Shown: piece after piece, positions 2,098 to 41,803 of the stretch
Layout: each line of letters opens with the position of its first letter
How positions within the stretch are numbered: the first letter of the stretch is position 1
From: a virus
IMG/VR virus record: IMGVR_UViG_3300045988_159115
Length of the DNA stretch: 64,000 bases
Direction: 5' to 3' (one strand)
Translations under genes and position numbers: made by a program
Notes under the pieces: model-generated
The model's input: the letters and a program-made list of their open reading frames with translations, nothing else
Told to the model about the DNA's origin: nothing
Database searches by the model: none

Positions 2098-2143
2098 CAG
2101 ATAACTAACTCCTCTCAAAAATCAGTTATACTAACGTGCTCAG

Positions 2144-2159
2144 AGATATAACATATCAT
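2144..2159 (-). promoter_or_regulatory. promoter-like box (ATGATATGTTATATC on the coding strand)
   Basis: One mismatch from the ATGATATATTATAT box found upstream of three other minus-strand genes (43171, 43509, 44951). Lies 46 nt upstream of the ATG at 2097. Confidence 0.4.
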
Positions 2160-2180
2160 TCAAAAGCACGATGTATATTT

Positions 2181-3050: not shown

Positions 3051-3121
3051 ATTATCATCACCTTTCTAATAAAAATATAGACGAGATAACAATAAATAGT
3101 TTAATCGGTTGTCATTGGATC

Positions 3122-3173
3122 CATGAAAAAATAAAGAGTGAGTATTCATACTGTTCATGAATACTCACTCTTT
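3122..3173 (-). terminator. rho-independent terminator after the chaperonin gene
   Basis: 17-bp stem AAAGAGTGAGTATTCAT / ATGAATACTCACTCTTT with a 7-nt loop, followed on the minus strand by ATTTTTTC. Confidence 0.75.
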
Positions 3174-3182
3174 AAAAAGTTC

Positions 3183-21532: not shown

Positions 21533-24500
21533 ATGGCTAAAGTAACTACAACGGATAAAATCGTTGTTGACCGTGACTATACGGACAGTTACTCCATTAA
21601 AGATACAGCACTGACTACTCTTGGTCAGAAATATTTCGGTGATATTCCGCTGTCAGCTCTGAATGTTGGCGAGCAAGGCTTCGTCATGGAGCAGATTGCA
21701 AATATCACTGAAGACGCAATGAATACAGCTTCAGTTCTTATCAACGAAGCTTTTCCGAATAAGGCAATTATCCCGGAATCCATCTATTCCCATGCCGCTA
21801 TTTTCCAGCTGGACAATTCTTTCGGATCCGCAGCAACTTGCACATTCGTTTTATTATTACAGCAGGAAGATATCCTCCTCTATGGTAGTCAGGATTCTTC
21901 AAACGGAACTGTAGTATTTACGATTGATAAGGATATGATTATCAATGTGGAAGATATTTCTTTCACTCTTGATTATGATGTCATTATCGAAGCAAAGAAA
22001 AAGAATATTGCGGGTACCTATCAATCAGAATATGTCTACAGTGCAAAGTACGACATGGCTGTTCCGAACTCAGTATCGACTGTTACGAATCCTTACCTGA
22101 AAATGCGTAAGGTGAATAACGGTCTTCTGATGTTGGAACTGACTGCACGACAGGTAACTCGCACAGAACTTCACGAGCAGATCATCACAAACACGAAGAT
22201 CAATTATCCGGTTCTGGACTTCGAATTTGACGATACCCTCGCTGGATTTGATATCTTCTACAAGGCGCCTACTGCATCCGATTATACAAGATTGGATAAG
22301 CTGGTAAAATTCTCTCTCCCTCTTAAAACACCTTTCTGCTATTATAGACTGAAAGATGAAAATATTCTGGAGATTTCTTTCTCTCCGAAAGATGGATACT
22401 TCCAGCCTGAGTTTAACTCAGATATCAAGGTGATCACCTATACAACAACTGGAGAAGAAGCAAACTTTGAAGAGTATACTGGTAGAAGTATCACTTTCCA
22501 GCCGTATTCGGAGAATTATGCATATAATTCTAAAATGATCATTGCTGGTAAAGCTGTATCTCCGGCTGCTGGTGGTGCTTCAAAGCTTTCCATTGATGCA
22601 CTGCAAGCTCTTACTGTGGAAGGATTCTCAACAGCAAATGAGCTTTCTACCGAAAACGATATTTCTACGTATTTCTACAACTATAAGTATCGATACGGTA
22701 ACGAGATTTTCGTCATTAAGCGTCGTGATGATATCATGGAACGACTCTTCTCAGCATTCCTTCTGATCAAGCGTGATGACTATATCTACCCAACAAATAC
22801 ACTCGGTGCAAACATCAACAGCTTTGAGTTTGATCGCTCTGAGAACGGTAATGTCTACACTCTGAACCCCGGTCATCTTTTCGTATATGAAGGCGACAGC
22901 AGAACTAGAGTGAGACTTCTTCCTGGCTATATGTCATATGATAAGACGATCACAGATCATCTCTACAAAGATCGGTATGAAACACCGAGCATTTGGTTTA
23001 GTGATCAGATTATCGTATTCGATAATAGCAAAAAAGAAGATCCGACTACTTGGAACACGACGTTTTTCGTTAAAAACCGAGAAGGTTATTGGCAGCATTA
23101 TGATGCTGATGGTAACATCATTGAGTATAATGAATATACCGATGCTGATATGGCTGCAAAGACTGAGCTTCTTGGTCTTAAAAAGAAGACTGTCTGCTAC
23201 CGTGAAGAAACCATCACAACCAAGCATTATGTAGATAATGAATCTGGTACGTATTATCTGTCTGATGGCAAGCATTATGATGCTGATGGTAATAAGATTG
23301 ATGGAGATCTTTCCACCGATACTCTTACTACAATGATCGAAAACGGGATGCTCGCCCTGTCCGTAGAATCACATCAGGTCTATTATGAGTCTGATACAAC
23401 CGGTAATAAAACTGGTGATTATATCGGATATGAAAAGCTGATGAAAGATATCAATATCTACAAGCTTTCTAATCTCGGTGAGTATTACGTCCAGGATCTT
23501 AACGGCTATTCTCGATACAATTGGTCTGGTGAAAAGCTGGAAACCCGTATCGACATGGAAGATTTGAAGCCTCTGATTCTCAGTGGTGGAGTTGAATTCA
23601 AGCAGGGTTATCAGTTCATCTACACAAACCCGTTCTTAATTTCCATGTCAAAGAGCCCAAATCTTGTCGGTCTTTACAAGAACATCCAGAATGAGATTGT
23701 GAGTCTGGATTACGTATCATCCAACGATAATCTTCTCTGTCAGTTCATTACTTCAAAACTGAAGCTGAATCGTAGACTGGAAGAGAATAGTCGATACGAG
23801 ATTTCTCTCAGCATTATTCCCTCCACAGTCTTGGATGGAGATTATGTCCACGAGTTCGGAAACTACAAGTCTGCTACTGGTATTCTGAACGACGTCCGTA
23901 TCTTTGCATCTTTCCTGAATGGTGACGAAGAGGTTGGATACATCGAACTGTATCCGTCCGAAGTGGATGCTTCGGATAAATCCATGGTAACATTTAGTGC
24001 AAAGATTATCACGAACGACTATATTACGACAGACAAGATGTTTGCAATTCTCAATCTTGTAAGTGCAGAAAGTGTTGACTACCACTACGTACCGATTGAA
24101 AATTGCTCTGTCAATATATACATCTGCTACCGTGATAATATCGGTGCAGTACAGCCTGGATTCTTTGATCTTTTCCGTCCGAAAAATGATAAGGGAGAGT
24201 CAGTTCCTGGTGGTGACATTGACCTTTACTCTCTGGCCAATGTATACTCTGCAAAAACAGAAGGTTTGACTTTCGTTGAACCTCTGAATATGATGCGTAG
24301 TAATGTGACCTTCTATACAGGTTCTCTCGATACAGAAGGAAATGAAAAGTGTACGATTGCTGCTATGTCTCTGCTTCCTATGGTGAAGGCAGACATGGTG
24401 AATAGCACAGACACATTCAATACCTTCATCAGCAAGGTTACAGATAACTATCGTTATCTTGAAGAGTGCTCACCTAGACTTCGTAACAACACAAACCTGG

Positions 24501-24931
24501 ATATCAAGTTCTATAACACTTATGGTCGTAGTAATAACTACTATATCGGCGACGAGCAAGAGCTCATTGACCGTGTTAATATTAGTATCAGTTACGACGT
24601 AAAGCTTGTAGACGGTACAACTGCTACAAATGTTATGGCTGAACTCCAGGCATTCATCAAAGCGTTTGTCGAAAAAGTCAATTCTACCGGTTCGAATGAC
24701 CTCTATATCTCAAATATGATTAAGGCGATCGAGAATAACTTCCCTGCCGTCCATCATCTGAGATTTACAGGAATCAATGATTACGACCCAAAGTATCAGA
24801 CAGTGTGCATGAAAGTAACTGATCTGAATGATCTTACCAAAGAAGAACTCCGGGAATACGTTCCCGAGGTTCTCGTTGTTGCACAGGATGATATCAAGCT
24901 CAACGTAGAGGTCGTAAAAACAATCAGTTAA
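21533..24931 (+). CDS. large virion structural protein, possible baseplate or tail component (1132 aa)
   Basis: Complete ORF with a GAAAGGAG RBS, in the same operon as the 19719 gene. Size and context suggest a tail or baseplate role. No enzymatic motif recognised. Confidence 0.6.
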   Translation: MAKVTTTDKIVVDRDYTDSYSIKDTALTTLGQKYFGDIPLSALNVGEQGFVMEQIANITEDAMNTASVLINEAFPNKAIIPESIYSHAAIFQLDNSFGSAATCTFVLLLQQEDILLYGSQDSSNGTVVFTIDKDMIINVEDISFTLDYDVIIEAKKKNIAGTYQSEYVYSAKYDMAVPNSVSTVTNPYLKMRKVNNGLLMLELTARQVTRTELHEQIITNTKINYPVLDFEFDDTLAGFDIFYKAPTASDYTRLDKLVKFSLPLKTPFCYYRLKDENILEISFSPKDGYFQPEFNSDIKVITYTTTGEEANFEEYTGRSITFQPYSENYAYNSKMIIAGKAVSPAAGGASKLSIDALQALTVEGFSTANELSTENDISTYFYNYKYRYGNEIFVIKRRDDIMERLFSAFLLIKRDDYIYPTNTLGANINSFEFDRSENGNVYTLNPGHLFVYEGDSRTRVRLLPGYMSYDKTITDHLYKDRYETPSIWFSDQIIVFDNSKKEDPTTWNTTFFVKNREGYWQHYDADGNIIEYNEYTDADMAAKTELLGLKKKTVCYREETITTKHYVDNESGTYYLSDGKHYDADGNKIDGDLSTDTLTTMIENGMLALSVESHQVYYESDTTGNKTGDYIGYEKLMKDINIYKLSNLGEYYVQDLNGYSRYNWSGEKLETRIDMEDLKPLILSGGVEFKQGYQFIYTNPFLISMSKSPNLVGLYKNIQNEIVSLDYVSSNDNLLCQFITSKLKLNRRLEENSRYEISLSIIPSTVLDGDYVHEFGNYKSATGILNDVRIFASFLNGDEEVGYIELYPSEVDASDKSMVTFSAKIITNDYITTDKMFAILNLVSAESVDYHYVPIENCSVNIYICYRDNIGAVQPGFFDLFRPKNDKGESVPGGDIDLYSLANVYSAKTEGLTFVEPLNMMRSNVTFYTGSLDTEGNEKCTIAAMSLLPMVKADMVNSTDTFNTFISKVTDNYRYLEECSPRLRNNTNLDIKFYNTYGRSNNYYIGDEQELIDRVNISISYDVKLVDGTTATNVMAELQAFIKAFVEKVNSTGSNDLYISNMIKAIENNFPAVHHLRFTGINDYDPKYQTVCMKVTDLNDLTKEELREYVPEVLVVAQDDIKLNVEVVKTIS

Positions 24932-27538: not shown

Positions 27539-28201
27539 TCAACCCTTCTTTCCAAATTTATTATAATTATAGAGGCAATCTGGTTCATCCATCCATTCAA
27601 TATGAATTTCAATCCTAGGTTTTAGTGAATAATACTTCTTAGAGACTCCCTCTACGATAAGAGAGTCATCTGCTAAAATTTTAGATTGAATCATATCAGA
27701 GTATGCTTTTCCCAGATTATCCCAATCAGGTTTACTTATAGGTCTAACTAATCCAAGTTCTGCCAAAATAGTATCTGCTTTTGACATAGACTTTGGGATT
27801 GGTAAGTAAGACACGCATGTAAATTTGCAAGGAGTATTGATCATTGGAAGATCTCTCCCTTTTGCAAATTTATCAAAAAGATCTTTGTTGTCTTTTGCTC
27901 CACGTACATAAAAGCTATTCGTCATAGAAGAATACCGTGGACGCGGAGTTGCTTTTGGAATCATATAAATCGTAAAATCCATATGACTCCAATGAATATT
28001 AAGAATATGATGGATTTTATCAGAAATTAACTCCTTTTGCCTGCCAAGCTTAAGCTGATCAAGGAGATAAACAAAGCGTTGCTGTGGATCTCTAGGAATT
28101 TCTCCATAGAGTTTACGATACTCACGCTCAATCTTCTTCAATGCTTTTTTACACTCCCGTGATACTAGCAATAAGATTCTCAAGACCACCAAAAATTGCA
28201 T
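27539..28201 (-). CDS. rusA: RusA-family Holliday junction resolvase (start uncertain)
   Basis: Core MIPKATPRPRY … KPDWDNLGKAYSDMIQSKILADDSLIVEGVSKKY matches the RusA catalytic D-x-D-N-L … DD pattern (E. coli RDLDNLQKAAFDAL…WLDDAQV). The first 17 codons overlap the upstream gene. The alternative start MDFTIY at 27982 would give a typical 147-aa RusA. Confidence 0.8.
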   Translation of the reverse strand: MQFLVVLRILLLVSRECKKALKKIEREYRKLYGEIPRDPQQRFVYLLDQLKLGRQKELISDKIHHILNIHWSHMDFTIYMIPKATPRPRYSSMTNSFYVRGAKDNKDLFDKFAKGRDLPMINTPCKFTCVSYLPIPKSMSKADTILAELGLVRPISKPDWDNLGKAYSDMIQSKILADDSLIVEGVSKKYYSLKPRIEIHIEWMDEPDCLYNYNKFGKKG

Positions 28202-29987
28202 TGCTCACATTATCACCAGCGCCAACAACAGCGGATTTCACAATAGTGGTAGCAAGAGCGATACGGTTTGAAAGCTGAGGAGTCACAAGACTAATACCAC
28301 ACTGAGATGCAATAAAGTCGATCAGACTAGAATTTGCAAGGAAAAGGGTAATATCACCAGACGGTGTGATACTCATATCGGAATAAAGATCGTCGATTGT
28401 AAAATCAACTCGGATATGAGTCGGATATCCATCAACAGACCACTCTCCGCCATCTGGGCACTTACTAATCGTCATATTAGAAATGATACCCAGATTACAA
28501 GAAAACACACCAGGATAGTATGCTTTCACAAGGAACGGAGAGCCATATGTATTCGCTGTTGTTTGCTTAGGAACAGCAAGCGCTACAAGATGCCAGAGTG
28601 GTACAAGGATATCCAAATAGAAGCCAAGCTTGTTACCATACGGTGTACGTAAGTCAACTGTCAAGTTATAGCTCTTTCCGTAGCTAGACTTCTTGTAAAT
28701 TTCAGGGAAGACCATCGTCTCACCACTGATGACATTAGAAGTCGTACTAAGAAGTCGGCTCATAACACCGGCGATACCAAACTTACTCTGAGACAGAACC
28801 GATGACATAGCATCAGCTGCACCTGTTGTAAGCTGCTTCAACTGAGTATCATCAACGCCGCCAGATTGGACAAGGAATGCAATTTCTTTGCCGAAATCAT
28901 CTGCTGAATCGTAGATACTTGAAAGTTTTGATGCCTCATGCTGGTTTGAGAATCCGTCAGACCCAGAAGTACTTGCATCGACATAAAATTCGACAAAGTT
29001 CATCTGAGTCAGAATATCAGAGATCGAACCAATTGCATCTTTCTCTTCACTCTTTCCAATTGCAGGAATCGACGATTCATTATTAAGTGCGATACCCATC
29101 ATTGATGCAAGACCTTTGATGGTTGAGCCAACCTTATTCTTCAAAGCATCTGCGATATTTTTCGATGCAGTAGAGTAAGCACCTTTCGTCCATCTGTAAT
29201 CTTTCCAATCGAACTTATCAAGCGTAGTTGATCCATCAATTGAAATCCCATTAAGATCAAGGAAAGCTGCAGACACCTGACAAAGAATATTGACATAGTT
29301 CATGTACTGCACGTATGTCTGCTGGAAGTCATAATAACGAAGTGCATTCTTTCTCTTCGCCTCATCCAGATTTGTCAGAAGAGCTGCCACATTACCGTTA
29401 GCAGCTTGCACCATCATATATGCAGTCTGTTTCTTTTTATCGCCTTCAACGGCCGGAAGATAAATAGGCTGTCCAGGAACGATTGTTACAACAGGTGCTT
29501 CCAGCATGATATTCTCGATAAAGGTTCGACCGATAAGCTGACTTTTCGGTTTATTGGCAATTGAATATGTCCGATAATCACAGTATTGAGTAAACTGGTG
29601 AGGAAGGCCAAATAATTTCATTGTATACTTGGTAATATCCTCACCATAATTATCAATCATATTCGTGAGAGTCTTATCAATGCCACTACTCAAAGAAGTT
29701 AGAAATCCGCCAACTCCACCACCGTTAGATGCCTTATCGGATGCTGTATTATCCGGGATAGGAACGTTTGGAGTATCTGCTTTCGTCTGCACAGATGGTG
29801 CACCAATTTGTGTCAACGTATTTGCATTGACAGCTGCTGTCACCTTTCCGTTTTGACCGATAACAACTCGATCACCATGGACTTCCAAAATATCATATGT
29901 ATTCTTACGAACGAACGGAGCAAGATGCGTTCCGTTCATGTCAGTCATTGCTGATGTGGTGACTTGCATACCTTCTGTAAAAGCCAT
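28149..29987 (-). CDS. virion structural protein with N-terminal SH3-like domain (612 aa)
   Basis: ATG at 29987 follows AGAGGTGA by 8 nt. The N-terminus MAFTEGMQVTTSAMTDMNGTHLAPFVRKNTYDILEVHGDRVVIGQNGKVTAAVNANTL is paralogous to that of the 19719 gene. Lies immediately downstream of the giant tape-measure-like gene. Confidence 0.65.
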   Translation of the reverse strand: MAFTEGMQVTTSAMTDMNGTHLAPFVRKNTYDILEVHGDRVVIGQNGKVTAAVNANTLTQIGAPSVQTKADTPNVPIPDNTASDKASNGGGVGGFLTSLSSGIDKTLTNMIDNYGEDITKYTMKLFGLPHQFTQYCDYRTYSIANKPKSQLIGRTFIENIMLEAPVVTIVPGQPIYLPAVEGDKKKQTAYMMVQAANGNVAALLTNLDEAKRKNALRYYDFQQTYVQYMNYVNILCQVSAAFLDLNGISIDGSTTLDKFDWKDYRWTKGAYSTASKNIADALKNKVGSTIKGLASMMGIALNNESSIPAIGKSEEKDAIGSISDILTQMNFVEFYVDASTSGSDGFSNQHEASKLSSIYDSADDFGKEIAFLVQSGGVDDTQLKQLTTGAADAMSSVLSQSKFGIAGVMSRLLSTTSNVISGETMVFPEIYKKSSYGKSYNLTVDLRTPYGNKLGFYLDILVPLWHLVALAVPKQTTANTYGSPFLVKAYYPGVFSCNLGIISNMTISKCPDGGEWSVDGYPTHIRVDFTIDDLYSDMSITPSGDITLFLANSSLIDFIASQCGISLVTPQLSNRIALATTIVKSAVVGAGDNVSNAIFGGLENLIASITGV

Positions 29988-30079
29988 GAAATAAATCACC
30001 TCTTTCTAACACAAAATAAATGGTAAGGAAAACCCCAGTTAATTTAGGAGTTTTCCTTACCATTTTGTTTCACTGAGGT

Positions 30080-33000
30080 TTAGACCCCAAATGCAATGCG
30101 ACGAGCAACCAACTCGGCATTTGTCATGGAAGAATCAGAGACACTTCCATTATTATATGACTTCTTGAATGCTCCGCGAGGAGTTGTTACGCTGGATTTG
30201 CTATCACCTTTTCCACCAGTCATCGGAGTATAATTCGAAGCTTTGATCTTCGAAATACCTTCTTTGATGTCGGACAGCTCATCCAGATTTTCAGTATTAC
30301 CAGAGATCGTACTAAGAAGAGCAACCATCTTATCCATAAGAATAAGAACCTGAGTGTTGTCAACACCACGGCCGCCATTCTTTTCCTTAGAAGTATAGCT
30401 AGAAGAATGAGGAGCTTGATAATAGCTACGGGTCTGATAAGAATCCACAGTAGAATTATGCTCATTCGTCCGATCAATGGATTTTGCCACAGGAGCAAAC
30501 CGCATATCCTTGACAGTAGCGCCTCTTCCACCCTTTCTATCAGCTCCGCTAATAGCATCAACGCCAGAATTCTGCTTAGCCTCATTGAACTTGTCATTGA
30601 TATAATCTTTGCCAGCTTTCAGTGCAACCGGCAGGACTACATCCTCCAAGACCACCTGACCAAGCGGACGCTTAGCAAGCTCTTCCTTGCGTTTCTTCTC
30701 TTCCTCAGCTTTCTTCTTAGCTTCAGCCTGTCTCTTACGCTCAGCACGAGAAACTTTCGGCTTTTGTCCAGTAAGTTTCTCAAACCATTCGTCAGAATGC
30801 TGATCAACCTCATACTCGAGATAAGCTCCAAGAAGTTGTCCACTAAGCGAGCCGATTCCGTCAGCGACCTTCTCAGCACCGCTCTGTTTCTTCTTCTTAG
30901 AATTCGTCTTCTTAGGACCATTGCCACCCTCTTCGCTCATGACATCTTTCCCATGGAAAGCCTGATAGTATTTCTCTGCCCACTGAGCACGAGGTGCAAA
31001 CTGACTAGACGTTCTAGCACGATTGTCGCCCCAACCAGGCATCTCATATCCGCCGAGAACAGCAGTAGCGGCATCAACAGGAGATGTGATGGTCTTAAGA
31101 CGATTAAATGTCTTGCGATATGCCGAACTACCGTTCTTAAACTCATCAAGCGCAAATGCGATCTGAGTATAAAGATTACCGATAGACGTCTTCTTCTGCT
31201 TCGCAAAATTAAGAAGTCTCTCTTTACGAGAAGTTTTATTAGGCTGATTTGCATAAGTCCATTGAGCAAGGCCATAGCCAGCAACGTCACTAGACTTATC
31301 AGGGAATCTACCATGCTGATCAGCATACGCAGTATATTGATCATCAGACATTCCGTACCGCTTATTGTACGAATCCTCCAGATTCTTAGGCTGTAATCTA
31401 GATTCGTTGTGCCAGCATCCAAGAACACCAGCAGCACCAGCATCAGACATACCAGCTTCACGAAGTTTACGGAAGATATTACGAGCGTTACCTTCAATCG
31501 TGCCAGTATCAGCATCAGCTCCACTAATACCGTCCACGTCTTCATCAGACGAACTAGACGAAGTATCTGTGTCGCCATTGATCTCATTCACCACTGCGTC
31601 CCAATCAACATCCATATTACCAGTAACAGCAGCTTCGAACATCTTGCTACCAATTGTGGACATTGCATTCGACATCAGTGAGAAGAACGACGCACTCTTA
31701 GATTCAGTATCACTATCGTAATAGCTATCACTTGCATCAGCACCATCAGCAGATGCTGCGGCAGAGTTATTGAACTGAATCGTACCCTTAGGAGCCTGAG
31801 TGTAATTAGCACCTGGCTTACCAGGAGTCCAAACGCAAGAATACGTTTTATAAGCACGACCTGTTGCAGATGCAGAGTTTGCAGAATTCGGAGATCCGAC
31901 GTTATAGACGAAAATGTTACCATTCAGTCTACCAGCGTAAATCTCAGTATGGCCAGACTTTGCAACGATATCACCAGGCTGGAGATTCCAGTTGGAGAAT
32001 GTCTTATAGGTGAATCCTGTATTTGCCATAAGCCCATTCTGATGAGTCATCTCACCAGAATAAAGCTGAGTGGAATCAGGAAGTACACCATAGAACTTCA
32101 GACATGCAGACACGAAGCCAGAGCAATCAGAACGAGTCCGAATAGTACGTCCACCAATTGTGACGTTGACATATCTATTTGAACTGTATCCAACACCAGA
32201 TCTTGCGATCTGCTTCTTTACTTCAATGACGATATCCATCCAGCGATCGCGATTGCTTCTACCACGGCCACCAACAACGCGACGAATGATATTACGGAAA
32301 CTCTTACGATGGCCGGAACCACCATAAGGCTTGTAATCGTCAAACGTCCAAACTGCTGATGTGTTATTATTGAGCTCATCGGGAGACACTGCTCCAGAAT
32401 ACTCAACGCCGCGAGGATCGTTAATGATAATATTGCCATTCGAATCAACGCCGTTTGCAACCACATAGTGGCCAGAATCAGTATAAGGAGAATTTCCATT
32501 ACCGTTATCACGGCCAAGAAGCATGACAGGACCGTTGGAATTGCGAACCTTACTGACGATCTCAGAGGAAGACGGATTCCGTTCCATAGAAGAGCGTACG
32601 CCATAAGCGCTTGCTGCATTCTGAACGAAATTCATATTCGTACCAGTTTCGTCACGGTCGCCAGTCTGCTGAGCAAGACGTGCAAGAGACACAGGATCAG
32701 TGTGATTTGCAGAGACATCCGAAAGAACCATTGCCATAGCCGTCGGGCCACAGCCGGTATCAGACATTGTTGCAGATGCATCAGAACCATCAGCCTTAGA
32801 GTAGGACTTCGATGCCCAACGAGAATCGTCCTGAGAATAATAAGTGCCACCATTCAGTGTATCAGGAGCAAGCCCACGACCACCGGATGTCTTACGGCGG
32901 CCAGAGCCACCTTCAGTCTTGTTAATCTCTTTAACGTCATTATTGATCTGATCCCAATCAACACCGTTACCAGAACCACCATCTGTCTTCTTCTTACCAC

Positions 33001-36000
33001 GGATCCAATCCATGAGAGAAGTACCGATGGAGTTGATAGCGTTCTTAATGGTGTCTCCGATGCTGTTGAAAATTCGAGGAATACCTACTGTAATCCAAGA
33101 AGCAAGTTTAATGGCACCGCCAATAAACTTTTTGAGACCATTGTCTTTTGAGTTCGGCATTTCAGCCTTCTCGAATCCAGACCAAGACTTGCTAGGATCA
33201 GTATATTGCTTCAGAGTTGACTGATAAGCTGCAATATCCTTATCAATTCCACCAAGTCCGACTGCAGTGAGAGCCTTGTCGACAAGTCCGCCGATCTTAT
33301 TCATGGCATAATTATAACCAGTGACAATATACATCGGAGCTCTGGAAATCTTAACGATTGCACCAGATAAGAGGCCCTTAGTTTTATCCTTACCAGCAGA
33401 AAGGAATTTAGAAAAGTCGCCAGTCACAGCAGCGTCCCAAGACTCGCCAACACCAGTCTTAATTGCGTCAATCTGCTCTTGATGGCTATCAATGAATTCA
33501 TCAATCTTACCCTTAACGCCTCTGATAGCAAATGCAGGGAGAGATCCGATAAGGAACGGAAGCTTCAGAACACCACAGACTGCTCCAGAGATTCCAGCAA
33601 GAGGACCATCAAAGTCGATATTAGCGTTACCAATTGCAGAAGGATCACCCTTCACCATATTGACGCTATAATCGGCAAGATGCTTAGGAATTTCAGCAAT
33701 ATTACCTGCTGCTCCGCCAATAAACTCAGGAACTTTCTTAAGCAGGAAGTCTCCACCAACAGATCCAAGCTTGCCAATCAAATGACCGACAAACACTGCA
33801 ACCTTACCAACACCAAGTGTTGCTCCGATGATTCCGTGGAGAGGGTTGTTCGGATCGGAAGTATTGACTTTAGCCTTTGCATAAGACATGAAATCAATAT
33901 TTGGATCGTTGAAGTTCTGATTGATTGTGCGGAAACCTGTTACAAGTGCACTACCAGCATCACCAAGAGTAGTAGTAAGATTCTTTCCAAAATTACCAAA
34001 GAACTGCTTGGCAGAATTAAATCCGCCCTTAATCATTTCAATGGGTTTTGTAAGAAGTCCACTCTTCTGCTCAGTAGTATCCTCGTAGCGACCGTTCTCA
34101 CCAGTCTGTCCCTCGAATGCTCTAGCATCAAGCTTAGCTGTTCCCAGCTGCTTACCAGTTGTAGCATCGTATGCCGAGAAAGTACCATCACTGTTTTCAC
34201 GATACTCAGTATTGGACTGCTTATCGACGAAAACTCTCTGCTTCTTACCGACGAGTTTCTCACGAGCCTTGTCGCCAAAGCCCTTAAGACCCTTCTGAAG
34301 ACGAGAACCAAGTGTCTGATTCTTCTCATCATTATAGTCAGCAAACGACTGAATATTTGCGCCATACTCGCCATTCTTAGCACCCTCAGTGAATTGCTCC
34401 AAAGTAACGCTAGGATCGAGCAGGCCTGCTTTGATCATCTCATTATACTGAGACTCAAGGTTTGAACTCACATTGGCATCGTATGCTTCCTTAAGTTCAG
34501 TCTGACCAGCAGCCAGAGCAGCAAACTTATCGTCACCAGCCACCATCTGATAAATCAGAGTAGCCAGTTCAGTATACATATCAACGCCAGTAACAGAAAC
34601 GATCAACTCATTGACACAGTCAACGATACTACCAAATGTTGAACCACTGAATGCACCAAAGAGTCCAGCGATGATCATCATAGTAGCATCTGGCTGACTA
34701 GATGTGCGGAAAAGTCTCTTAGCACCAGAAACGCCATTGATAGCACCAAGAACCACCCAAGTAGATTCTTTTGCTGCATAACCAACAACTGTAGTTGCGA
34801 GACCAGCTGCTGTGCCGAGAATAGTTGCAATCTTAGCAGAAATCTTCTTAAAGTGCTTCTGGACACATCCGGTCGCACTAGACAGAAGTTTGGTAACCTT
34901 ACCAGGTTTGATTGAGCCGCCAAATCGAGCGCTTGCTTTCTCCATGATGCTAGAGAAGAATTTCTTCACAACGTCAATGACTTTTGTGATACCACTCTTC
35001 TCACTTGCAGCCATGATCTTATCAGCTGTTGTATTCGCAAACTTACCAACCTTCGATGCAACAGATGCTACATGGTCACCGTTATTGATGTTATCCTCCA
35101 TCATTCCTGTGAGGATTTCATTGGAGAAGGTTTCGTTCGATAATGCCTTACCAGCACCATACTTGAAACCATTCACTGCAGAAGAGGTAACCTCAAGGTA
35201 TTTATTCTTGATACCACTACCAATCTTATTCTTAAGACCAGAGACAGCTTTACCGGCTCTTGTATTAGCAAGAGCATTGCCGATGAATTTTCCACCCTTA
35301 CGAAGATCACCACCAAGGTTCTTGATGTTGTCAATTCCACCCTTCACCTTAGGAATAGCCTTCTTACCAGCCTCATAGATCGTGTTTGCGCCACCAGCAA
35401 CGCCTTGCGCGAGAAGCTTGGTACGAGCTCCAGTTTCGTTGTAAATATTACCGTCCTTATCATAGAGGAAACTCTTGATAGCGTCCGGAATATTACCAGT
35501 AAGAAGATTACCAACGGTGTTCTTCAAACCATCCAGTTCATCAGAAATGACATCTGCAGATGTTCTACCGTCACCGAGTCTTTCCTTTCCATACATATAG
35601 TCCGAAACAAGACGTTCTGCAGGATTCGTTGACTCGGAAGACCCATTGCCAGGATTTGCAAAGAGACTGATAAGTCTACCAAGAAGCTTCAGCACCATAG
35701 GAGCAAGGAGAATGAATGCACCTGTGATAATACCCTTCTTCGAGAAAATCGAATTCCAGATAGTATTATGAGAATGAATACCTTCGTTAATGGATTCCAT
35801 CAAACCAGTATTCTTCTTATCCTTTGCTTCCTGCTCAGCCTTTTCATCAACAGCAGCACGCTGAGCACGCTGTTCATCTGCTGTCTTACCCTTAGGAGCA
35901 GACTGATCCGGATTGATAGTTGCGTCACCGTAAGAAATCTCACCATCGGTAGTTTCCTCACTAGCAACGGTCTTACTAGGATCAATCGTAGCATTGGCTT

Positions 36001-39000
36001 TCAGTGCAGAAGTGATTGCGGTATTTGCACCAGCAAACGGAGAATTTGAATTTCCAATATTCGGTACCGAAATATTGGTAGGAGCCTTCACGGACGCATC
36101 CGTAGAAGTATAGGTTTTCGTGATATTGGTATCGGCATCTTCACGAGCAGTTTCCATATCACTAAATCCACCCTTAACGGTATCAAAGATACCACCGAGC
36201 AGATCACGGATATCCGCAAAGATACCTACGAGGCCAGTACGAGCAGAAGCATCATTCGGAATGACCTTCTCGCCACCAGCCATCTCACGAACTTCAGGAC
36301 CGCTGGTACCGACGACAGTTGCACCCTTATCGGTAACAACCATCTCTTCGCCTTCCTCACCGACATCGGCGGGACCCGGCTTAGCATTATCGGTACCATC
36401 AGCATAATGAGCACGCTTCCTCTTTGCTTCAAGCTCCTCTTTGCGTCTACGGCGACGTTCCTCAAGTGCACGATGTGCTGCTTCCTTTGCTTCGCGATTT
36501 GCTTTGACGCGATCAAGATACGCCTCATAGTTAATATCGCGTTGCTGTTTCATCTCATGACGAGTCTGATCGGAATCCAGCATCGTGCCATTCTTACGAC
36601 GGTCTTTACGACGCTGCTTATAATCTTTATTCGATTCTTTAGCGCCAGCACGAAGACCACCGATATTGGACAGAGCAACTTCAATACCGCCAAAGAACCC
36701 ATAGTCCTTCATGTAGTCAGAGAACTTCTTTTGACGATCCTTAGAAGACGACTTTGTTGCGCGATCACGTGCAGCTTCAGCAATCTTAATTTCAGCACCA
36801 TGATTTCCGTTCTCATCCTTATGAAGAAGCTCAATATTGCGATCGGTGTTACGATCAGTATATCCCTGAGCCTTACCTGTTGTAAAAGCTTCCGCCTTTG
36901 CTTCGTCTTTTGTAAGCTTAGGTTTACGGCCAAGAATAAAATCGAGCGCCTTATGAAGAATAGCATTCGTATCCTTCTGGACATCGAGCGATGCATCCTG
37001 GAATTTCTCAGTTTTGATCTGAGATTCAGTCTTGATGGCATCTCCCTTGAAACTGATATGCTCACCACGCTCAAGCGCAGCAGCTTTTGCAAATGCACGG
37101 TTTTCCTCAGTATCTTCCGATCTCTGATTCTTCGTGTACTTTGCAATCAGTCTCTGGTTATTAAGGAGGTCTTTGCGTTTCTGCCGACGCTCCTTAGCCA
37201 TATTCTTCTGACGTTCTTTTTTTTCCTTATTTAAACGAACTCTTGTCGCCCAAGGAAGACCCTTACCGGCATCTTTAATACTGCCATCAGGATTAAAGAG
37301 CATCTTGGAGCTAACGTCCTTCTTTTCCATTCCGTACTTTGTTGAATCCCAAACCTTACGGAAATAAGCTCCGAGACCACTACCCTCTTCGCGCTTCTCA
37401 GCTCCAAGACCAAAGAACTTACGACCCTTATCAATGATACCATTGATCCAAGTCATAGGATTCATGAAGTGAAGGATGTTCTTAACAGATTTTGTGATTG
37501 CGCCAGTAACCTGATCACGAACGTAAGTAACAGCAGACTTTGCAAGATCAACCACAGGACTCACAAGACGGCGCATACCGCCCTGAACCCAGCGAAGAGC
37601 ATCTTGTGCACTCTTGAAAGCAGTCTGAATCAGACGCATCGGCCAAGAATTCATGACGGCGTCTTTTACATCACGAAGAACCGAGATGCCAAAACGACCA
37701 ATATGAGCGACAGTGCCGATGATCTTATCATTAATGAATCCGAATGTCTTCTGAACTGCCTTAAACGGGAGAGAAACAGCAGTGCCAATAGCTTTTGCAG
37801 CAACACCGAGTGCCTTAGAGAATACACCAAAAGTAGTCTTAACTGCGAGACCGATCGGAGTAGTAATCGCCTTAATAGCGAGACCAACGCCATGACGAAG
37901 TGCAGTAGCCATGGGCGACAGCATTGTCATAACGAGATTGATCGGTGTAGAAATGATTGCTTTAGCAGCTCCCCAGATAGCATTACCAGCTGCAGTAGCT
38001 GCGGCAGTAACAGGCTGAAGAATCTTCTTCGTAGCATCGACCATTCCACCAAGGAAGTCTTCCTTAATGAATCGGCCGACATCTTTTGCAGTATTCCAAG
38101 CAAACGAAGTCAGACTACCAATCATGGACGATACAGCATCGCCAATCGGTTCCATGATCAGAGTGATCTTATTGAAGACGTCAAACTGAAGGAAATTCTT
38201 CGCGTCGTCAATGAAGTTTGCAGCAGCATTCTTGATAGGCTGGAATACGGAGACATTCAGAGCATTCTTAAACTGGCCAAGAATACCTTCTCGTTTTACT
38301 CCAGTCTCTTCATCAACTTTGCCGAACAGCCATTCATGGAAGTTATCCTTCTGAGCAAGAATAGCTGCACCAAGACCAAGAGATGCACCGAGAACAGGAC
38401 CGCCAACGAGAGTACCGAGTAAGCCGCCTGTGCCAAGGCCAATACCAAGCATACCAGCAAGCTTACCGCCAGAAACGCCACCATTGGATTCAGCATCACC
38501 AACGATGTTGCGCATCCACTTCTTGCCAAGAGTGACAATACCGAGCTGTCCGTTTTCAGCATCACCAAAAAGGAACTTCTGGAAAATTTCACTCTTTAAA
38601 ACAGTAGCGGATGCAAGACCCATGAGTGCGCCAGCAATAGGACCGCCGACGATAGTACCGAGGATACCACCACCAGTGATTGTACCAGTAACGGCACCTA
38701 CTGCAGCGCCGCCTGTTAAGAACTTTCCATGCTCATGGAAGAATTCTTGAGTTTTATCACTGATAAAGCCTTCGTGGTCTTCTGTACCAAAAAGCCAATC
38801 TTGGAATTTTTCAGACTTTGAAAGAATACCACCAGCAAAGCCAAGAAGAGCTCCGCCGATAGGACCACCGACGAGAGTACCGAGTAAACCGCCAGCAGCA
38901 ACGCCGCCAGCAGCACCAACGGCTGCGCCAGCCATTCCGGAAGGAAGCATCTCAGAGGCTTTCTCTTTGATAGAATCAATGACTTCTTGCTGAGTCTTCT

Positions 39001-41803
39001 CATCATCTTCGTCATCATTCGTACCAAAAAGAGCGTTCTTCCAACCAACTAATCCTTTACGTAAAGAATCTGCTACAGAAGATAATCCAGAGGTAGCCTT
39101 ATGAATAAGGCCTTCTTTTCCAGATTCTTCTTCGCCCTCTTTTTTCTCGCCAAAGAGACGAACCTCAATACCTTCTTTGATATGATTGACCATACCGGTA
39201 AGCTTACCCTTAACGGTATTCTTCATCTCTTCGTCATTGGCCTTCGGAACAGCAGTGCCATCTGCTGCAATGTAACCTTCACCTGTGATCATATGGCGCA
39301 GGCCAAAATATGATTCACGGATTCGGTTATTCACACCAGAAAGAATACCATTCTGCTTATAGCCATTCTCGTCCTTGCTACCAAAGAGAGTTTCTTTTAA
39401 AGGAGTAAGGAATTTCTCAGAGATATATTCTCCGGCCTTAGTAAACGAAGCACCAAGACCCTTCATCATAGCGTCCCAAGCAGCATCAGAATCTCCATTC
39501 ATGATACCAGCAAGGACGCCACTCGCTTTCTGGAAGAAAGTAGCAGTAATACCACCAAGCTGACCTTTTTCAGGTTCAGGCTGAACGATATTCGGCTGAG
39601 CAGCAAAGAGCTTTTCGTAGTCGTCTGCTGTCTGCGGGCCCTCAGGTTCAGGAGGATTGACAAAATGATTCAATACGGGAGCCTGGCTCGCTGCTTGTTG
39701 TGCAGAAACGAGCAGACCGTGAGCATTCTGCTTAAACCCTTCCATCAACGGATGATTCGGTACATATACACCAGTTTTCTGGTCTCTATGGTACATCGTT
39801 CCGTCAATGCCCTTTGTCTCGTCATTATACGGGATTCTGATATCGTCGTCAATATCTACGCCGTCCAGCTTACGACGAATCTGGACGAAAATACCACGAC
39901 GAAGAATATCCCGAATGTCAGTGACAAGAGAAGGAAGAGAAGCTGCCGGGCTCGGATTAACAGGACGAATCTCTCCACCCTGCTTAATCGTCTCAACAGC
40001 ACGGTCATTGATCATCTGATCAATATTACGGCCATCAAAAATCTTACCGACGTTATTATGCTCACCCGCTTCGTTGTAACCGGTAACAGATTTGACTCGG
40101 TTTGCAGATGCTCTCTGCTTTGCATAGTTTGCGGAAATTAATGCTCCATCATTGGTTTTCACCATATTCTGGAACATGCCAAGATAAGCATTCTTTACCC
40201 GCTCATCAGCAGTCTCAAGACTATTGATAAGAGTCTCTCGATTCAGGGCATCTTCAAGACGAAGCGGACCATTGATCTGCTCCATCTTGAGAAACAGCTC
40301 AGGAAGACTCTTTAAGAATGATTCTTGGAGAGCTGGATCAACTGACCCAAGGTTTGCAGCATAAATCTTTGCTTTCTTACCAAAATCACTCTTGTTAAAT
40401 TCATTGACCGTATCATACGTGAGGTTATCCGTGATCTCATCACGCATCTGTTTTACGGTCTTATATCTGCCTTCCTCCCAATCATATGCCTGAATATTCT
40501 TATCGAAATCACTCGCGTTCTTACCAGTAACAGCAATTGCGATCTGCTGTAAATATCCGGTAGACTCACGAAGATATTTCGGAATAATTTCAGTAATGGC
40601 ATGGTTGGCCATTCCGTTATACGGAACCGGAGTCGCGTCAACTCTCTTGAGGTCAAAATCTTTGGTACGCTTTGTTCTCGTACCAAAGATAGCACCAATT
40701 GTACGCTTACCTTCACCAATGAGGGTTGCATCATCTTCACCCCAAGCACCAATACGCTCAAGGACAGAAGGAATGAATGCTTTCAAAGTATTATCAAACT
40801 GCTTCATAGCAGATTTGGTAATCTTCGGAATCATTGCATCAATACCCATCTTAAGAGCAGCGCCTACAGGATTTGCTGTAAGAGCTTCCTTGTTCTCAAG
40901 AAGAGTATTTGCCATACCAACCACGTTACCGAGTGCGGTTGCAGATTGGTCAATCTTTTTGATATTCTGAGTAACGTACTTGACATAATTACCCAGATCG
41001 AATCCGCCTTCCATGGTGACAAGGTCCTTCGAAGTGATCTCGTCTTTCCCACCCTTGTACGGATCTTCCTGCTTAGGAGTCATTTGCTCATAGTATGCGA
41101 TAGAAGCATCTATGAACTTCGTCATATTCTCTGTCTGATAATTCAGTAATGCAGAGATGTTAGAATTAATTGACGTTAACTGACCAATTACTTCTTGACC
41201 GATCTCAGCATTTTTTGCCAAAGAAATAGACGTAAGCGAAACCATCGCATCAACTTGTGCCTTAGCAGCAGTAAGTTGATACTCGGATTGCTTTTGGATT
41301 AATCGAACGGTCGCATCATTGCTTCCATTAGACTGCGTTTGATTAACTACGTTATTATTGATTTGGACATTTGTGTCGTCATCAATATCTGAGAAAGAAA
41401 CGTCTCCAGAAGAATCAAAGAGTTTATCAATATCATCTTCTGAAAATTGATCTTTCTGGTCACCATAACCACCCATGAGCGCTTTTTCTTCACGCTCTTT
41501 ATTATAGAGATTACCAGATTTCAAGTCTTGCAGCGAGTTATCAATTACCTGCTGGGCGAATTTAACTGCCGGAGTACCTTTGATCATGGTAATTACTTTT
41601 CCGGAGGTTAACTTTGAATCTCGAATGGTCTTTGCAACTTCCGATGAAGATTGTGATACCGACTTAATAGTAGAAGCGGTTGACGGCATGATGTCTTTGA
41701 TGACTTCAGTGCCAGCCAAACCGAGACTATTAAGAGCATTTCGTAACCAAGGAGAATTTAACTTCGTCCTGGTTACCGTGATATCGGTATTTTTCTTAGC
41801 CAT
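30080..41803 (-). CDS. giant tape-measure-like virion protein with three cell-wall hydrolase domains (3,907 aa)
   Basis: Single uninterrupted ORF. There are three GGLLGTLVGGP…FQxWLFG glycine-zipper repeats (aa ~956-1161), long helical and K/R/E-rich stretches, and a …VGEEGEEMVV…GGEKVIPN motif typical of tape measure proteins. The C39-like domain reads YYSQDDSRW…TGCGPTAMAMVL…GHYVV…NDP (aa ~2985-3135). The NlpC/P60-like domain reads RSDCSGFV…GHTEIYAG (aa ~3190-3310). The phage-tail-lysozyme-like domain reads AAGVLGCWHNES…GYGLAQWT (aa ~3435-3620). Confidence 0.85.
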   Translation of the reverse strand: MAKKNTDITVTRTKLNSPWLRNALNSLGLAGTEVIKDIMPSTASTIKSVSQSSSEVAKTIRDSKLTSGKVITMIKGTPAVKFAQQVIDNSLQDLKSGNLYNKEREEKALMGGYGDQKDQFSEDDIDKLFDSSGDVSFSDIDDDTNVQINNNVVNQTQSNGSNDATVRLIQKQSEYQLTAAKAQVDAMVSLTSISLAKNAEIGQEVIGQLTSINSNISALLNYQTENMTKFIDASIAYYEQMTPKQEDPYKGGKDEITSKDLVTMEGGFDLGNYVKYVTQNIKKIDQSATALGNVVGMANTLLENKEALTANPVGAALKMGIDAMIPKITKSAMKQFDNTLKAFIPSVLERIGAWGEDDATLIGEGKRTIGAIFGTRTKRTKDFDLKRVDATPVPYNGMANHAITEIIPKYLRESTGYLQQIAIAVTGKNASDFDKNIQAYDWEEGRYKTVKQMRDEITDNLTYDTVNEFNKSDFGKKAKIYAANLGSVDPALQESFLKSLPELFLKMEQINGPLRLEDALNRETLINSLETADERVKNAYLGMFQNMVKTNDGALISANYAKQRASANRVKSVTGYNEAGEHNNVGKIFDGRNIDQMINDRAVETIKQGGEIRPVNPSPAASLPSLVTDIRDILRRGIFVQIRRKLDGVDIDDDIRIPYNDETKGIDGTMYHRDQKTGVYVPNHPLMEGFKQNAHGLLVSAQQAASQAPVLNHFVNPPEPEGPQTADDYEKLFAAQPNIVQPEPEKGQLGGITATFFQKASGVLAGIMNGDSDAAWDAMMKGLGASFTKAGEYISEKFLTPLKETLFGSKDENGYKQNGILSGVNNRIRESYFGLRHMITGEGYIAADGTAVPKANDEEMKNTVKGKLTGMVNHIKEGIEVRLFGEKKEGEEESGKEGLIHKATSGLSSVADSLRKGLVGWKNALFGTNDDEDDEKTQQEVIDSIKEKASEMLPSGMAGAAVGAAGGVAAGGLLGTLVGGPIGGALLGFAGGILSKSEKFQDWLFGTEDHEGFISDKTQEFFHEHGKFLTGGAAVGAVTGTITGGGILGTIVGGPIAGALMGLASATVLKSEIFQKFLFGDAENGQLGIVTLGKKWMRNIVGDAESNGGVSGGKLAGMLGIGLGTGGLLGTLVGGPVLGASLGLGAAILAQKDNFHEWLFGKVDEETGVKREGILGQFKNALNVSVFQPIKNAAANFIDDAKNFLQFDVFNKITLIMEPIGDAVSSMIGSLTSFAWNTAKDVGRFIKEDFLGGMVDATKKILQPVTAAATAAGNAIWGAAKAIISTPINLVMTMLSPMATALRHGVGLAIKAITTPIGLAVKTTFGVFSKALGVAAKAIGTAVSLPFKAVQKTFGFINDKIIGTVAHIGRFGISVLRDVKDAVMNSWPMRLIQTAFKSAQDALRWVQGGMRRLVSPVVDLAKSAVTYVRDQVTGAITKSVKNILHFMNPMTWINGIIDKGRKFFGLGAEKREEGSGLGAYFRKVWDSTKYGMEKKDVSSKMLFNPDGSIKDAGKGLPWATRVRLNKEKKERQKNMAKERRQKRKDLLNNQRLIAKYTKNQRSEDTEENRAFAKAAALERGEHISFKGDAIKTESQIKTEKFQDASLDVQKDTNAILHKALDFILGRKPKLTKDEAKAEAFTTGKAQGYTDRNTDRNIELLHKDENGNHGAEIKIAEAARDRATKSSSKDRQKKFSDYMKDYGFFGGIEVALSNIGGLRAGAKESNKDYKQRRKDRRKNGTMLDSDQTRHEMKQQRDINYEAYLDRVKANREAKEAAHRALEERRRRRKEELEAKRKRAHYADGTDNAKPGPADVGEEGEEMVVTDKGATVVGTSGPEVREMAGGEKVIPNDASARTGLVGIFADIRDLLGGIFDTVKGGFSDMETAREDADTNITKTYTSTDASVKAPTNISVPNIGNSNSPFAGANTAITSALKANATIDPSKTVASEETTDGEISYGDATINPDQSAPKGKTADEQRAQRAAVDEKAEQEAKDKKNTGLMESINEGIHSHNTIWNSIFSKKGIITGAFILLAPMVLKLLGRLISLFANPGNGSSESTNPAERLVSDYMYGKERLGDGRTSADVISDELDGLKNTVGNLLTGNIPDAIKSFLYDKDGNIYNETGARTKLLAQGVAGGANTIYEAGKKAIPKVKGGIDNIKNLGGDLRKGGKFIGNALANTRAGKAVSGLKNKIGSGIKNKYLEVTSSAVNGFKYGAGKALSNETFSNEILTGMMEDNINNGDHVASVASKVGKFANTTADKIMAASEKSGITKVIDVVKKFFSSIMEKASARFGGSIKPGKVTKLLSSATGCVQKHFKKISAKIATILGTAAGLATTVVGYAAKESTWVVLGAINGVSGAKRLFRTSSQPDATMMIIAGLFGAFSGSTFGSIVDCVNELIVSVTGVDMYTELATLIYQMVAGDDKFAALAAGQTELKEAYDANVSSNLESQYNEMIKAGLLDPSVTLEQFTEGAKNGEYGANIQSFADYNDEKNQTLGSRLQKGLKGFGDKAREKLVGKKQRVFVDKQSNTEYRENSDGTFSAYDATTGKQLGTAKLDARAFEGQTGENGRYEDTTEQKSGLLTKPIEMIKGGFNSAKQFFGNFGKNLTTTLGDAGSALVTGFRTINQNFNDPNIDFMSYAKAKVNTSDPNNPLHGIIGATLGVGKVAVFVGHLIGKLGSVGGDFLLKKVPEFIGGAAGNIAEIPKHLADYSVNMVKGDPSAIGNANIDFDGPLAGISGAVCGVLKLPFLIGSLPAFAIRGVKGKIDEFIDSHQEQIDAIKTGVGESWDAAVTGDFSKFLSAGKDKTKGLLSGAIVKISRAPMYIVTGYNYAMNKIGGLVDKALTAVGLGGIDKDIAAYQSTLKQYTDPSKSWSGFEKAEMPNSKDNGLKKFIGGAIKLASWITVGIPRIFNSIGDTIKNAINSIGTSLMDWIRGKKKTDGGSGNGVDWDQINNDVKEINKTEGGSGRRKTSGGRGLAPDTLNGGTYYSQDDSRWASKSYSKADGSDASATMSDTGCGPTAMAMVLSDVSANHTDPVSLARLAQQTGDRDETGTNMNFVQNAASAYGVRSSMERNPSSSEIVSKVRNSNGPVMLLGRDNGNGNSPYTDSGHYVVANGVDSNGNIIINDPRGVEYSGAVSPDELNNNTSAVWTFDDYKPYGGSGHRKSFRNIIRRVVGGRGRSNRDRWMDIVIEVKKQIARSGVGYSSNRYVNVTIGGRTIRTRSDCSGFVSACLKFYGVLPDSTQLYSGEMTHQNGLMANTGFTYKTFSNWNLQPGDIVAKSGHTEIYAGRLNGNIFVYNVGSPNSANSASATGRAYKTYSCVWTPGKPGANYTQAPKGTIQFNNSAAASADGADASDSYYDSDTESKSASFFSLMSNAMSTIGSKMFEAAVTGNMDVDWDAVVNEINGDTDTSSSSSDEDVDGISGADADTGTIEGNARNIFRKLREAGMSDAGAAGVLGCWHNESRLQPKNLEDSYNKRYGMSDDQYTAYADQHGRFPDKSSDVAGYGLAQWTYANQPNKTSRKERLLNFAKQKKTSIGNLYTQIAFALDEFKNGSSAYRKTFNRLKTITSPVDAATAVLGGYEMPGWGDNRARTSSQFAPRAQWAEKYYQAFHGKDVMSEEGGNGPKKTNSKKKKQSGAEKVADGIGSLSGQLLGAYLEYEVDQHSDEWFEKLTGQKPKVSRAERKRQAEAKKKAEEEKKRKEELAKRPLGQVVLEDVVLPVALKAGKDYINDKFNEAKQNSGVDAISGADRKGGRGATVKDMRFAPVAKSIDRTNEHNSTVDSYQTRSYYQAPHSSSYTSKEKNGGRGVDNTQVLILMDKMVALLSTISGNTENLDELSDIKEGISKIKASNYTPMTGGKGDSKSSVTTPRGAFKKSYNNGSVSDSSMTNAELVARRIAFGV

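Follow-up and report, generated by a model that had tools for sequence, protein, structure and literature searches.

A 3,907-residue protein, probably of tape-measure or ejection type, with a multi-enzyme cassette in an AR9/PBS1-related jumbo phage

The giant open reading frame and its family

The stretch of viral DNA analysed here, referred to as the window, comprises 64,000 nucleotides of the IMG/VR record IMGVR_UViG_3300045988_159115. Positions 30080..41803 encode a single giant protein on the minus strand: an 11.7-kb open reading frame (ORF) starts with ATG and runs in one frame through 3,907 codons to its stop. Among the other products of the window are a GroEL-like chaperonin, a DNA polymerase and a primase that match jumbo-phage PHROGs, and several virion structural proteins; the phage is related to the Bacillus jumbo phages AR9 and PBS1. 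The giant protein is probably the tape-measure or ejection protein of an uncultivated AR9/PBS1-like jumbo myophage (∼255 kb), equipped with three enzymes that cut the cell wall, and the host is probably a Gram-positive bacterium (Bacillota). All features of the giant protein described below lie on the minus strand, with nucleotide positions given in window coordinates.

An ORF of this length could be an artefact, either an assembly chimera or the product of a sequencing error joining two genes, and two observations would suit that explanation: a relative in ENA (L002) has the gene as two ORFs, of 980 and 3,166 amino acids (aa), and jumbo phages of Staphylococcus aureus carry two distinct ∼2,000-aa genes. 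Such an artefact is nevertheless very improbable. Three more IMG/VR contigs of 145–259 kb (L004, L006 and L007) encode unbroken 3,907-aa proteins that align without gaps over their full length at 96–97% identity, and a contig from another dataset (L005) encodes a version that is 94% identical, so that the single ORF of the original prediction, which had named a chimera as its own possible undoing, recurs on four independent contigs. There are moreover 24 complete IMG/VR homologues of at least 3,100 aa and 101 representative proteins of at least 2,400 aa. The split in L002 comes down to one base lacking in a run of T, and both genes of the S. aureus phage DC4 carry the N-terminal domain described below, which makes them paralogues and not halves of one gene. 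At the junction in L002 (12754–12997) the T-run reads GGTTTGCT where GGTTTTGCT is expected, and homology continues in both frames across it; the split is probably a sequencing or assembly indel, and after repair the protein would have ∼4,150 aa.

The G+C content of the giant ORF (window 30001–40000) is 0.445–0.469, against ∼0.40–0.41 in the flanks, and the GC skew is negative throughout, both of which may reflect Gly/Ala-rich coding. Self-BLAST at E 1e-3 detects no large internal repeats, and megablast of the ORF against phage genomes gives zero matches.

The family to which the protein belongs is defined by an N-terminal domain (N-domain; aa 1–620, 39944..41803), homologous to the N-termini of AR9 g204 and PBS1 gp95. 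Residues 19–590 match AR9 g204, a 1,925-aa protein annotated as a tail tape measure, at 24% identity (E 6e-16 in tblastn, 2e-26 in BLASTP). A profile of the N-domain, which scores E 4.6e-190 against its own protein, matches 48 IMG/VR loci, mostly on contigs of 200–280 kb. The local gene order is shared as well: the giant ORF is followed by a gene for a 616-aa virion protein and by a RusA gene, as are g204, g205 and g208 in AR9, and the same order is found in phage BpSp. Homology over the N-terminal ∼600 aa and the order of the g205-like and RusA genes place the giant protein in the family of AR9 g204-like giant virion proteins.

This family is large. The complete IMG/VR homologues span 3,100–3,907 aa and 18 more extend past the fetched flank, with the AR9 protein as a short outlier. 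Among the best 148 representative matches to the second peptidase domain of the cassette, 101 proteins are 2,400–5,854 aa long; all but one of these 101 giants carry the N-domain, 82 have the glycine-zipper segment and 85 a C39 domain, and the layout of the giant protein (N-domain, C39, NlpC-like domain and lysozyme2) recurs in at least 24. Clustered at 50% identity, the proteins that have both the N-domain and the papain-like domain form at least 100 clusters, again of 2,400–5,854 aa. When the N-terminal 960 aa or the C-terminal 721 aa served as the query, only 3 and 2 proteins, respectively, were returned, an effect of the word index. The best structural matches in BFVD are pieces of giant proteins from gut ‘Myoviridae sp.’ that are named ‘Tail tape measure’. 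By sequence comparison the protein is thus not unique but belongs to a large family that has been little studied, and its initial description as rare was wrong: giant size and a C39-led multi-enzyme cassette are the norm here.

The closest known systems have shorter proteins. AR9 g204, PBS1 gp95 and BpSp gp263 (Takahashivirus; annotated ‘tail tape measure protein’ or ‘lysis domain protein’) share the N-terminal ∼570 aa and the gene order, and have a wall hydrolase of their own in the C-terminal part (VgrG3-like_C, aa 1468–1658). They differ in being about half as long (1,797–1,925 aa) and only ∼24% identical, and in having no C39_2, NlpC-like or Phage_lysozyme2 domain; the second hydrophobic module of the giant protein was not detected in them.

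The S. aureus jumbo phages MarsHill and DC4, which are related to AR9, carry adjacent ∼2,000-aa genes for a ‘tail tape measure’ (M23) and a ‘tail lysin’ (PF18013 and PF00877). Their helical regions rich in transmembrane (TM) segments and their lysozyme2 and NlpC-type domains resemble the giant protein, whereas the arrangement as two paralogous genes instead of one does not; C39_2 is not reported for them, and their BLAST match to the giant protein is confined to the lysozyme domain. The N-domain profile finds its match at the same position in each of the two DC4 proteins (E 1.6e-17 and 1.6e-12). The giant ORF was also considered as a fusion of two neighbouring genes of the DC4 type, and this idea was rejected because the N-domain is present in both DC4 proteins. 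In the DC4 record (L052, 6375–18259) the neighbours annotated ‘tail lysozyme’ and ‘tail tape measure’ each have the AR9-g204-like N-domain at aa ∼353–669.

Tape-measure proteins that bear a lytic domain are textbook knowledge. CwlP/YomI of the Bacillus subtilis phage SPβ and Pb2 of phage T5 reportedly do not exceed ∼2,300 aa, and their enzyme domains, one or two in number, lie at the C-terminus or close to it. They resemble the giant protein in being long, peptidoglycan-degrading and perhaps membrane-inserting proteins of the tail lumen (PMC9662197). The giant protein differs in that its tape-measure signature lies mid-protein and the ∼2,050 aa beyond it contain, besides the conserved terminal tail, a second hydrophobic module and three enzyme domains. 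The family roughly doubles the usual upper size of lytic tape measures and extends them by this additional hydrophobic module and by a multi-enzyme cassette of exchangeable parts, which is C39-led in most members.

The C-terminal enzyme cassette

The original prediction placed three peptidoglycan hydrolase domains near the C-terminus. All the motifs that it quoted are found in the giant protein: TGCGPTAMAM (Cys3018), SGHYVV (H3112), RSDCSGFV (Cys3227), GHTEIYAG (His3285), GCWHNES (Glu3467) and GYGLAQWT (from aa 3509), as well as VGEEGEE...GGEKVIPN (aa 1814–1851) outside the cassette. Its numbering of Cys3018, Cys3227 and His3285 is correct, and the C39 histidine is H3112, not H3111. In Pfam searches two of the three domains score above the family cut-offs, namely Peptidase_C39_2 and Phage_lysozyme2, while NlpC/P60 and CHAP fail as assignments for the third.

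The clearest of the three is the phage-tail lysozyme (Phage_lysozyme2, PF18013) at aa 3439–3616 (30956..31489), where domain type and nucleotide range agree with what had been predicted. The match covers model positions 2–140 of 140 with E 5.4e-24 and 85.4 bits against a cut-off of 28.2; the E-S motif lies at Glu3467 (HNES) and GLAQW at 3511. The region also matches phrog_20388 (endolysin) and is 37–40% identical to lysins of Acutalibacter and Faecalibacterium phages.

The first enzyme of the cassette is a Peptidase_C39_2 domain (PF13529) at aa 2975–3165 (32309..32881), matched by Pfam over aa 2994–3130 with E 3.3e-12 and 47.6 bits against a cut-off of 24. In the alignment Gln2991, Cys3018 and His3112 are invariant and Asp3129 is nearly so. 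In several relatives C39-like domains occur in tandem or scattered, two or three per protein (L028 at aa 3396 and 3614, L044 at aa 2772 and 2948, L033, and representatives such as P0129, P0156 and P0164).

The C39-like peptidase and its position were thus predicted correctly, but folds and sequence relatives point to different roles for it. Its 494 sequence homologues are mostly 230–440 aa long and combine PF13529 with PG_binding_1, PG_binding_3 or SH3_3, which is an endolysin-like layout, and Peptidase_C39_2 is treated in the literature as a lysin catalytic domain in phages of Gram-positive hosts (PMC8223927, PMC3314691). The AlphaFold2 model, built from 123 homologues, has a core (∼aa 2979–3160) with a predicted local distance difference test score (pLDDT) mostly above 90, dipping to ∼76 at aa ∼3095–3114. 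Its closest Foldseek matches in the PDB are papain-like enzymes with protein substrates: a CdiA-CT toxin, the C39 domains of PCAT1 and ComA (target-normalised TM-score 0.79, root mean square deviation 2.5 Å), staphopains, Josephin clippases and the C39-like 3ERV of Bacillus anthracis. None of the top 50 matches is an NlpC or CHAP enzyme. The domain is accordingly a candidate for either a wall peptidase or a protein-cutting peptidase, as far as sequence and model go.

The second peptidase, at aa 3185–3335 (31799..32251), had been proposed to be NlpC/P60- or CHAP-like. NlpC/P60 (PF00877) scores 17 bits against a cut-off of 23 (E 0.005), and among six family members it appears at E≤1 in three, at best with 0.0047; CHAP (PF05257) gives no match at E≤1 in aa 3170–3347, and some relatives have a true CHAP domain there. 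The closest Pfam model is ELLD, the endolysin-like domain (PF25309), although its 17 bits fall below the 27-bit cut-off, so that it serves as the closest model only. ELLD reaches E≤1 in five of the six homologues (best E 5e-6), with 23.4 bits as the best standalone score; Amidase_6 scores similarly to NLPC_P60 and ELLD. A PDB sequence search with the profile of this domain found nothing, and 524 homologues emerged from an exhaustive profile search among 1.84 billion representative proteins. Their alignment has an invariant D-C-S-G (Cys3227), G-H-x-E-I (His3285) and Asn3301, 16 residues on, and the short standalone homologues bear PG_binding_1 or Peptidase_M23. An AlphaFold2 model of the whole cassette (721 aa, three sequences) has a pLDDT of 42.6, too poor for a fold search, and its secondary-structure pattern alone was used; in this low-confidence model the cysteine sits at the N-terminus of a helix and the histidine on a strand. 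Judged from its sequence, the domain is accepted here as a papain-like Cys/His wall hydrolase at the superfamily level, similar to the NlpC/P60 superfamily, and is not filed as NlpC/P60 or CHAP. The class of wall hydrolase is assigned because the Cys and His are invariant and because the standalone relatives carry wall-binding or wall-lytic domains.

What follows the C39_2 domain varies among relatives: Pfam finds CHAP with a glucosaminidase; a GDSL lipase with CHAP and lysozyme2; a VgrG3-like lysozyme; or lysozyme2 alone. Such swapping of enzymes behind C39 is as expected for a lytic cassette adapted to the host. For enzybiotic mining the family would be a useful natural collection of wall-lytic modules that virions deliver and that are matched to Gram-positive hosts, gut Clostridia-like ones among them. 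A gut-virome survey (PMC13284279) counts C39_2-C39_2-lysozyme2-NLPC_P60 among its ‘endolysin’ architectures, and fragments of family proteins have probably been counted as ‘endolysins’ in virome surveys, which calls for caution in annotation.

The domains of the cassette are joined by linkers with a recurrent glycine motif. A cluster of GGxG motifs lies just upstream of the C39 domain (GGSG 2942, GGSG 2965 and GGRG 2974; 32873..32980), a pair separates it from the second peptidase (GGSG 3161 and GGRG 3178; 32261..32323), and four more are C-terminal, at 3626 (just upstream of the tail), 3758, 3810 and 3863. All nine GG[RSKN]G motifs fall within the last 977 aa (aa 2942–3863) and all are at domain boundaries; shuffled sequences predict 0.33, and none of 5,000 shuffles reaches nine. 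Around the 73 C39 sites of the representative giants, a GGxG lies 25–75 aa before the catalytic cysteine in 85% and 125–185 aa after it in 89%, against a background rate of 0.09 per 50 aa, and neither bracketing motif occurs in any of 95 standalone C39_2 homologues. In the IMG/VR relatives the two figures are 85% and 85%, and the positions are retained in proteins of only 22–40% identity. In several relatives a GGxG immediately precedes the mid-protein tape-measure motif, as in L022 (residue 1556).

This bracketing, together with the likeness in fold to double-glycine peptidases, suggests that the giant precursor may cut itself. The C39-like domain would act in cis as a double-glycine protease at the conserved GGxG linkers, and its cuts, made either in the course of assembly or once the protein has been ejected, would set free the tape-measure part, the membrane module and each of the lytic enzymes. 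ComA and PCAT1, the bacteriocin exporters whose C39 domains give the best solved folds for aa 2975–3165, share with the giant protein the conserved Gln/Cys/His/Asp and the vicinity of Gly-Gly-containing motifs; the top 50 structural matches, as noted, contain no NlpC or CHAP wall hydrolase. The giant protein's domain differs in having no ABC transporter, in being only 14–20% identical and in belonging to Pfam C39_2 rather than C39. Its closest relatives in sequence are endolysin-like proteins with peptidoglycan-binding domains, which accords with its literature standing as a lysin domain and speaks for a wall enzyme. The GGxG motifs, for their part, may be mere flexible linkers of multi-domain contexts, and some giants have them inside the domain as well, in an internal loop (the +75 peak). 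The linkers of the AlphaFold2 model are disordered and undocked from the active-site cleft, which is uninformative on docking. The lactococcal tail lysin Tal2009 is said to cleave itself at a glycine-rich site; a literature search gave no usable primary data on its processing. On balance, a virion polyprotein with a built-in double-glycine protease that frees the tape measure, a membrane-inserting module and host-specific wall enzymes is a tentative proposal, and a rather doubtful one. If true, it would amount to a self-dismantling cargo system of the tail lumen common to at least 100 jumbo-phage lineages, and to a new mechanism for the assembly or activation of tail proteins. We know of no protease of this kind reported for a tape measure.

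Tape-measure features and delivery into the cell

Several distinct segments lie between the N-domain and the cassette. Three glycine-zipper hydrophobic repeats at aa ∼955–1150 (38354..38941; GG..LGTLVGGPIGGALLG...SEKFQ.WLFG) stand out in a Kyte-Doolittle scan, are conserved in most relatives and are candidate membrane-inserting hairpins. They are followed by an Ala/Val/Ile-rich hydrophobic segment (aa 1165–1480, 37364..38311), which is 36% identical to its L002 homologue, and by a highly charged K/R/E-rich segment (aa 1500–1800, 36404..37306); the zipper repeats and the charged stretch had both been predicted.

The tape-measure assignment rests in part on what comes next. Residues 1798–1852 (36248..36412; HYADGTDNAKPGPADVGEEGEE...GPEV...GGEKVIPN) form a canonical tape-measure C-terminal signature, whose tblastn matches are almost only proteins annotated as tape measures. 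A search with aa 1798–1882 (85 aa, permissive threshold) gave ∼100 phage records, and among the 40 listed nearly all annotated matches are tape-measure proteins, from siphophages of Bacillus, Clostridium, Staphylococcus, Lactococcus, Brevibacterium or Pseudomonas hosts. Alignment with the tape measures of phages yong1 and FA88 gives the common pattern YA.GT....G.A.VGE.G.E...V.P. In canonical tape measures this motif lies in the C-terminal third, at residue 1071 of 1,495 in yong1 and 902 of 1,029, near the end, in FA88; here it is at residue ∼1814 of 3,907 (46% of the length), and in relatives at 1540–1810. A ruler-like module may therefore extend to about residue 1850, which would make it roughly as large as the complete AR9 protein, with the rest as a hydrophobic and lytic extension. 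The very long tail first suggested from the full length of the protein is a weak conclusion given this position; at 0.15 nm per residue a ruler of at most ∼1,850 aa would give at most ∼275 nm, a calculated and not a measured figure.

Beyond the signature lies a second hydrophobic module (aa 2019–2763, 33515..35749), which includes the family-conserved aa 2270–2500 and in the Kyte-Doolittle scan has five TM-like segments (2019–2048, 2325–2343, 2376–2394, 2655–2676 and 2735–2763). After the enzymes, the protein ends in a conserved tail (aa 3640–3907, 30083..30886) with a K/E-rich stretch, GGxG motifs, a helix (LLSTISGNTENLDEL) and a terminal motif. This motif, A-R/K-x-I-A-x-G, is family-wide (here ARRIAFGV) and follows a conserved helix, IAGNT...KLD.L; through this motif the protein may dock to the baseplate hub or the tail terminator. 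Both ends of the protein are conserved, which argues that the whole polypeptide is a functional unit when synthesised. The last ∼15 codons (window 30083–30130) carry the form A-R/K-x-I-A-x-G(G)(Y/L/V) that ends nearly all family members, from 2,700 to 5,800 aa.

These features suggest a protein of two modules. The first (aa 1 to ∼1850) would consist of the N-domain, the three glycine-zipper hairpins, the hydrophobic and charged segments and the tape-measure signature; the second (aa ∼1850–3907) would add further hydrophobic helices, the cassette of C39-like, NlpC/ELLD-like and tail-lysozyme domains, and the C-terminal docking tail. It is likely that the giant protein is incorporated in the tail tube and baseplate and is expelled when the sheath contracts. 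The lysozyme would then cleave glycan strands and the peptidases the peptide stems or cross-links, so that the thick wall is opened locally, after which the hydrophobic segments, the glycine-zipper repeats among them, would enter the membrane and aid the formation of a DNA conduit. The way in which very large phages get through thick walls could be tested concretely on this family, whose more than 100 clusters (50% identity) are spread widely among uncultivated jumbo phages.

Several points weigh against a tape measure delivered from the tail. No tape-measure model matches at E≤1 in Pfam, with the whole protein or with ten 330-aa tiles, nor does any in NCBIfam, so that the tape-measure-like character noted from the start is borne out by the N-domain, the gene order and the VGEEGEE region and not by hidden Markov models (HMMs); AR9 g204 likewise has no NCBIfam match. 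A PDB sequence search with the whole protein matched no solved structure. The ‘tape measure’ label of the AR9 protein is a record annotation and not an experiment, and the tblastn E-values of the signature are weak (best 3e-4), so that the force of this argument comes from how the hits are annotated. Its length of 3,907 aa far exceeds the need of any tail ruler. No direct virion evidence was found for any family member: BpSp gp263 is absent from the proteins identified by mass spectrometry (MS) of gel bands, and the giant DC4 proteins are absent from the reported liquid chromatography-MS list. A literature search on AR9 virion proteomics found no usable primary data. Upstream of the giant ORF no frameshift pair for a tail-assembly chaperone was identified, no search having been aimed at one.

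The excess length, the numerous hydrophobic segments and the zero tape-measure HMM matches would also suit a protein packaged in the head, which would reside in the capsid and not in the tail lumen, as do podophage ejectosome proteins and the ejection proteins of phiKZ and SPN3US, and would be expelled as a channel across the envelope. The second peptidase adds to this: its closest Pfam model is ELLD, and the sole paper found with the term ‘endolysin-like domain’ concerns an ejectosome protein of phage ΦM1, although a link between that paper and the Pfam model is one that we infer. Placement in the head is nonetheless unlikely. The signature motif is specific to tail tape measures, and the gene neighbours and the AR9 annotation indicate a tail or virion protein. 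A contractile-tailed lineage with a long tube also needs a protein in its lumen, and there is no other tape-measure candidate within the 64-kb window of the ∼255 kb. The tape-measure or ejection protein of the tail thus remains the favoured explanation.

Neighbouring genes

Downstream of the giant ORF, the 616-aa virion structural protein is encoded at 28149..29999 (minus strand); it matches phrog_20401 and, in BLASTP, both exons of AR9 g205. The end of this gene is overlapped by the gene for the RusA-like resolvase (27539..28201, minus strand), the counterpart of AR9 g208 and BpSp gp265. The small ORFs upstream of the giant ORF have no family matches, and a second paralogue with the N-domain was not found in the 64-kb window.

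A gene for a RusA-like Holliday-junction resolvase directly follows the virion genes, here as in AR9 and BpSp. The BpSp homologue was detected by mass spectrometry of purified virions (PMC4870245), and by analogy the resolvase of the window may be a packaged protein. Further along, at 21533–24931 on the plus strand and within a block conserved with AR9, lies a gene for a 1,132-aa homologue of AR9 g212, a hypothetical protein (phrog_18960). The GroEL-like chaperonin of 687 aa is encoded at 3183–5246 on the minus strand (phrog_5725, E 4.7e-64); AR9 and the S. aureus jumbo phages are described as having such a gene too.

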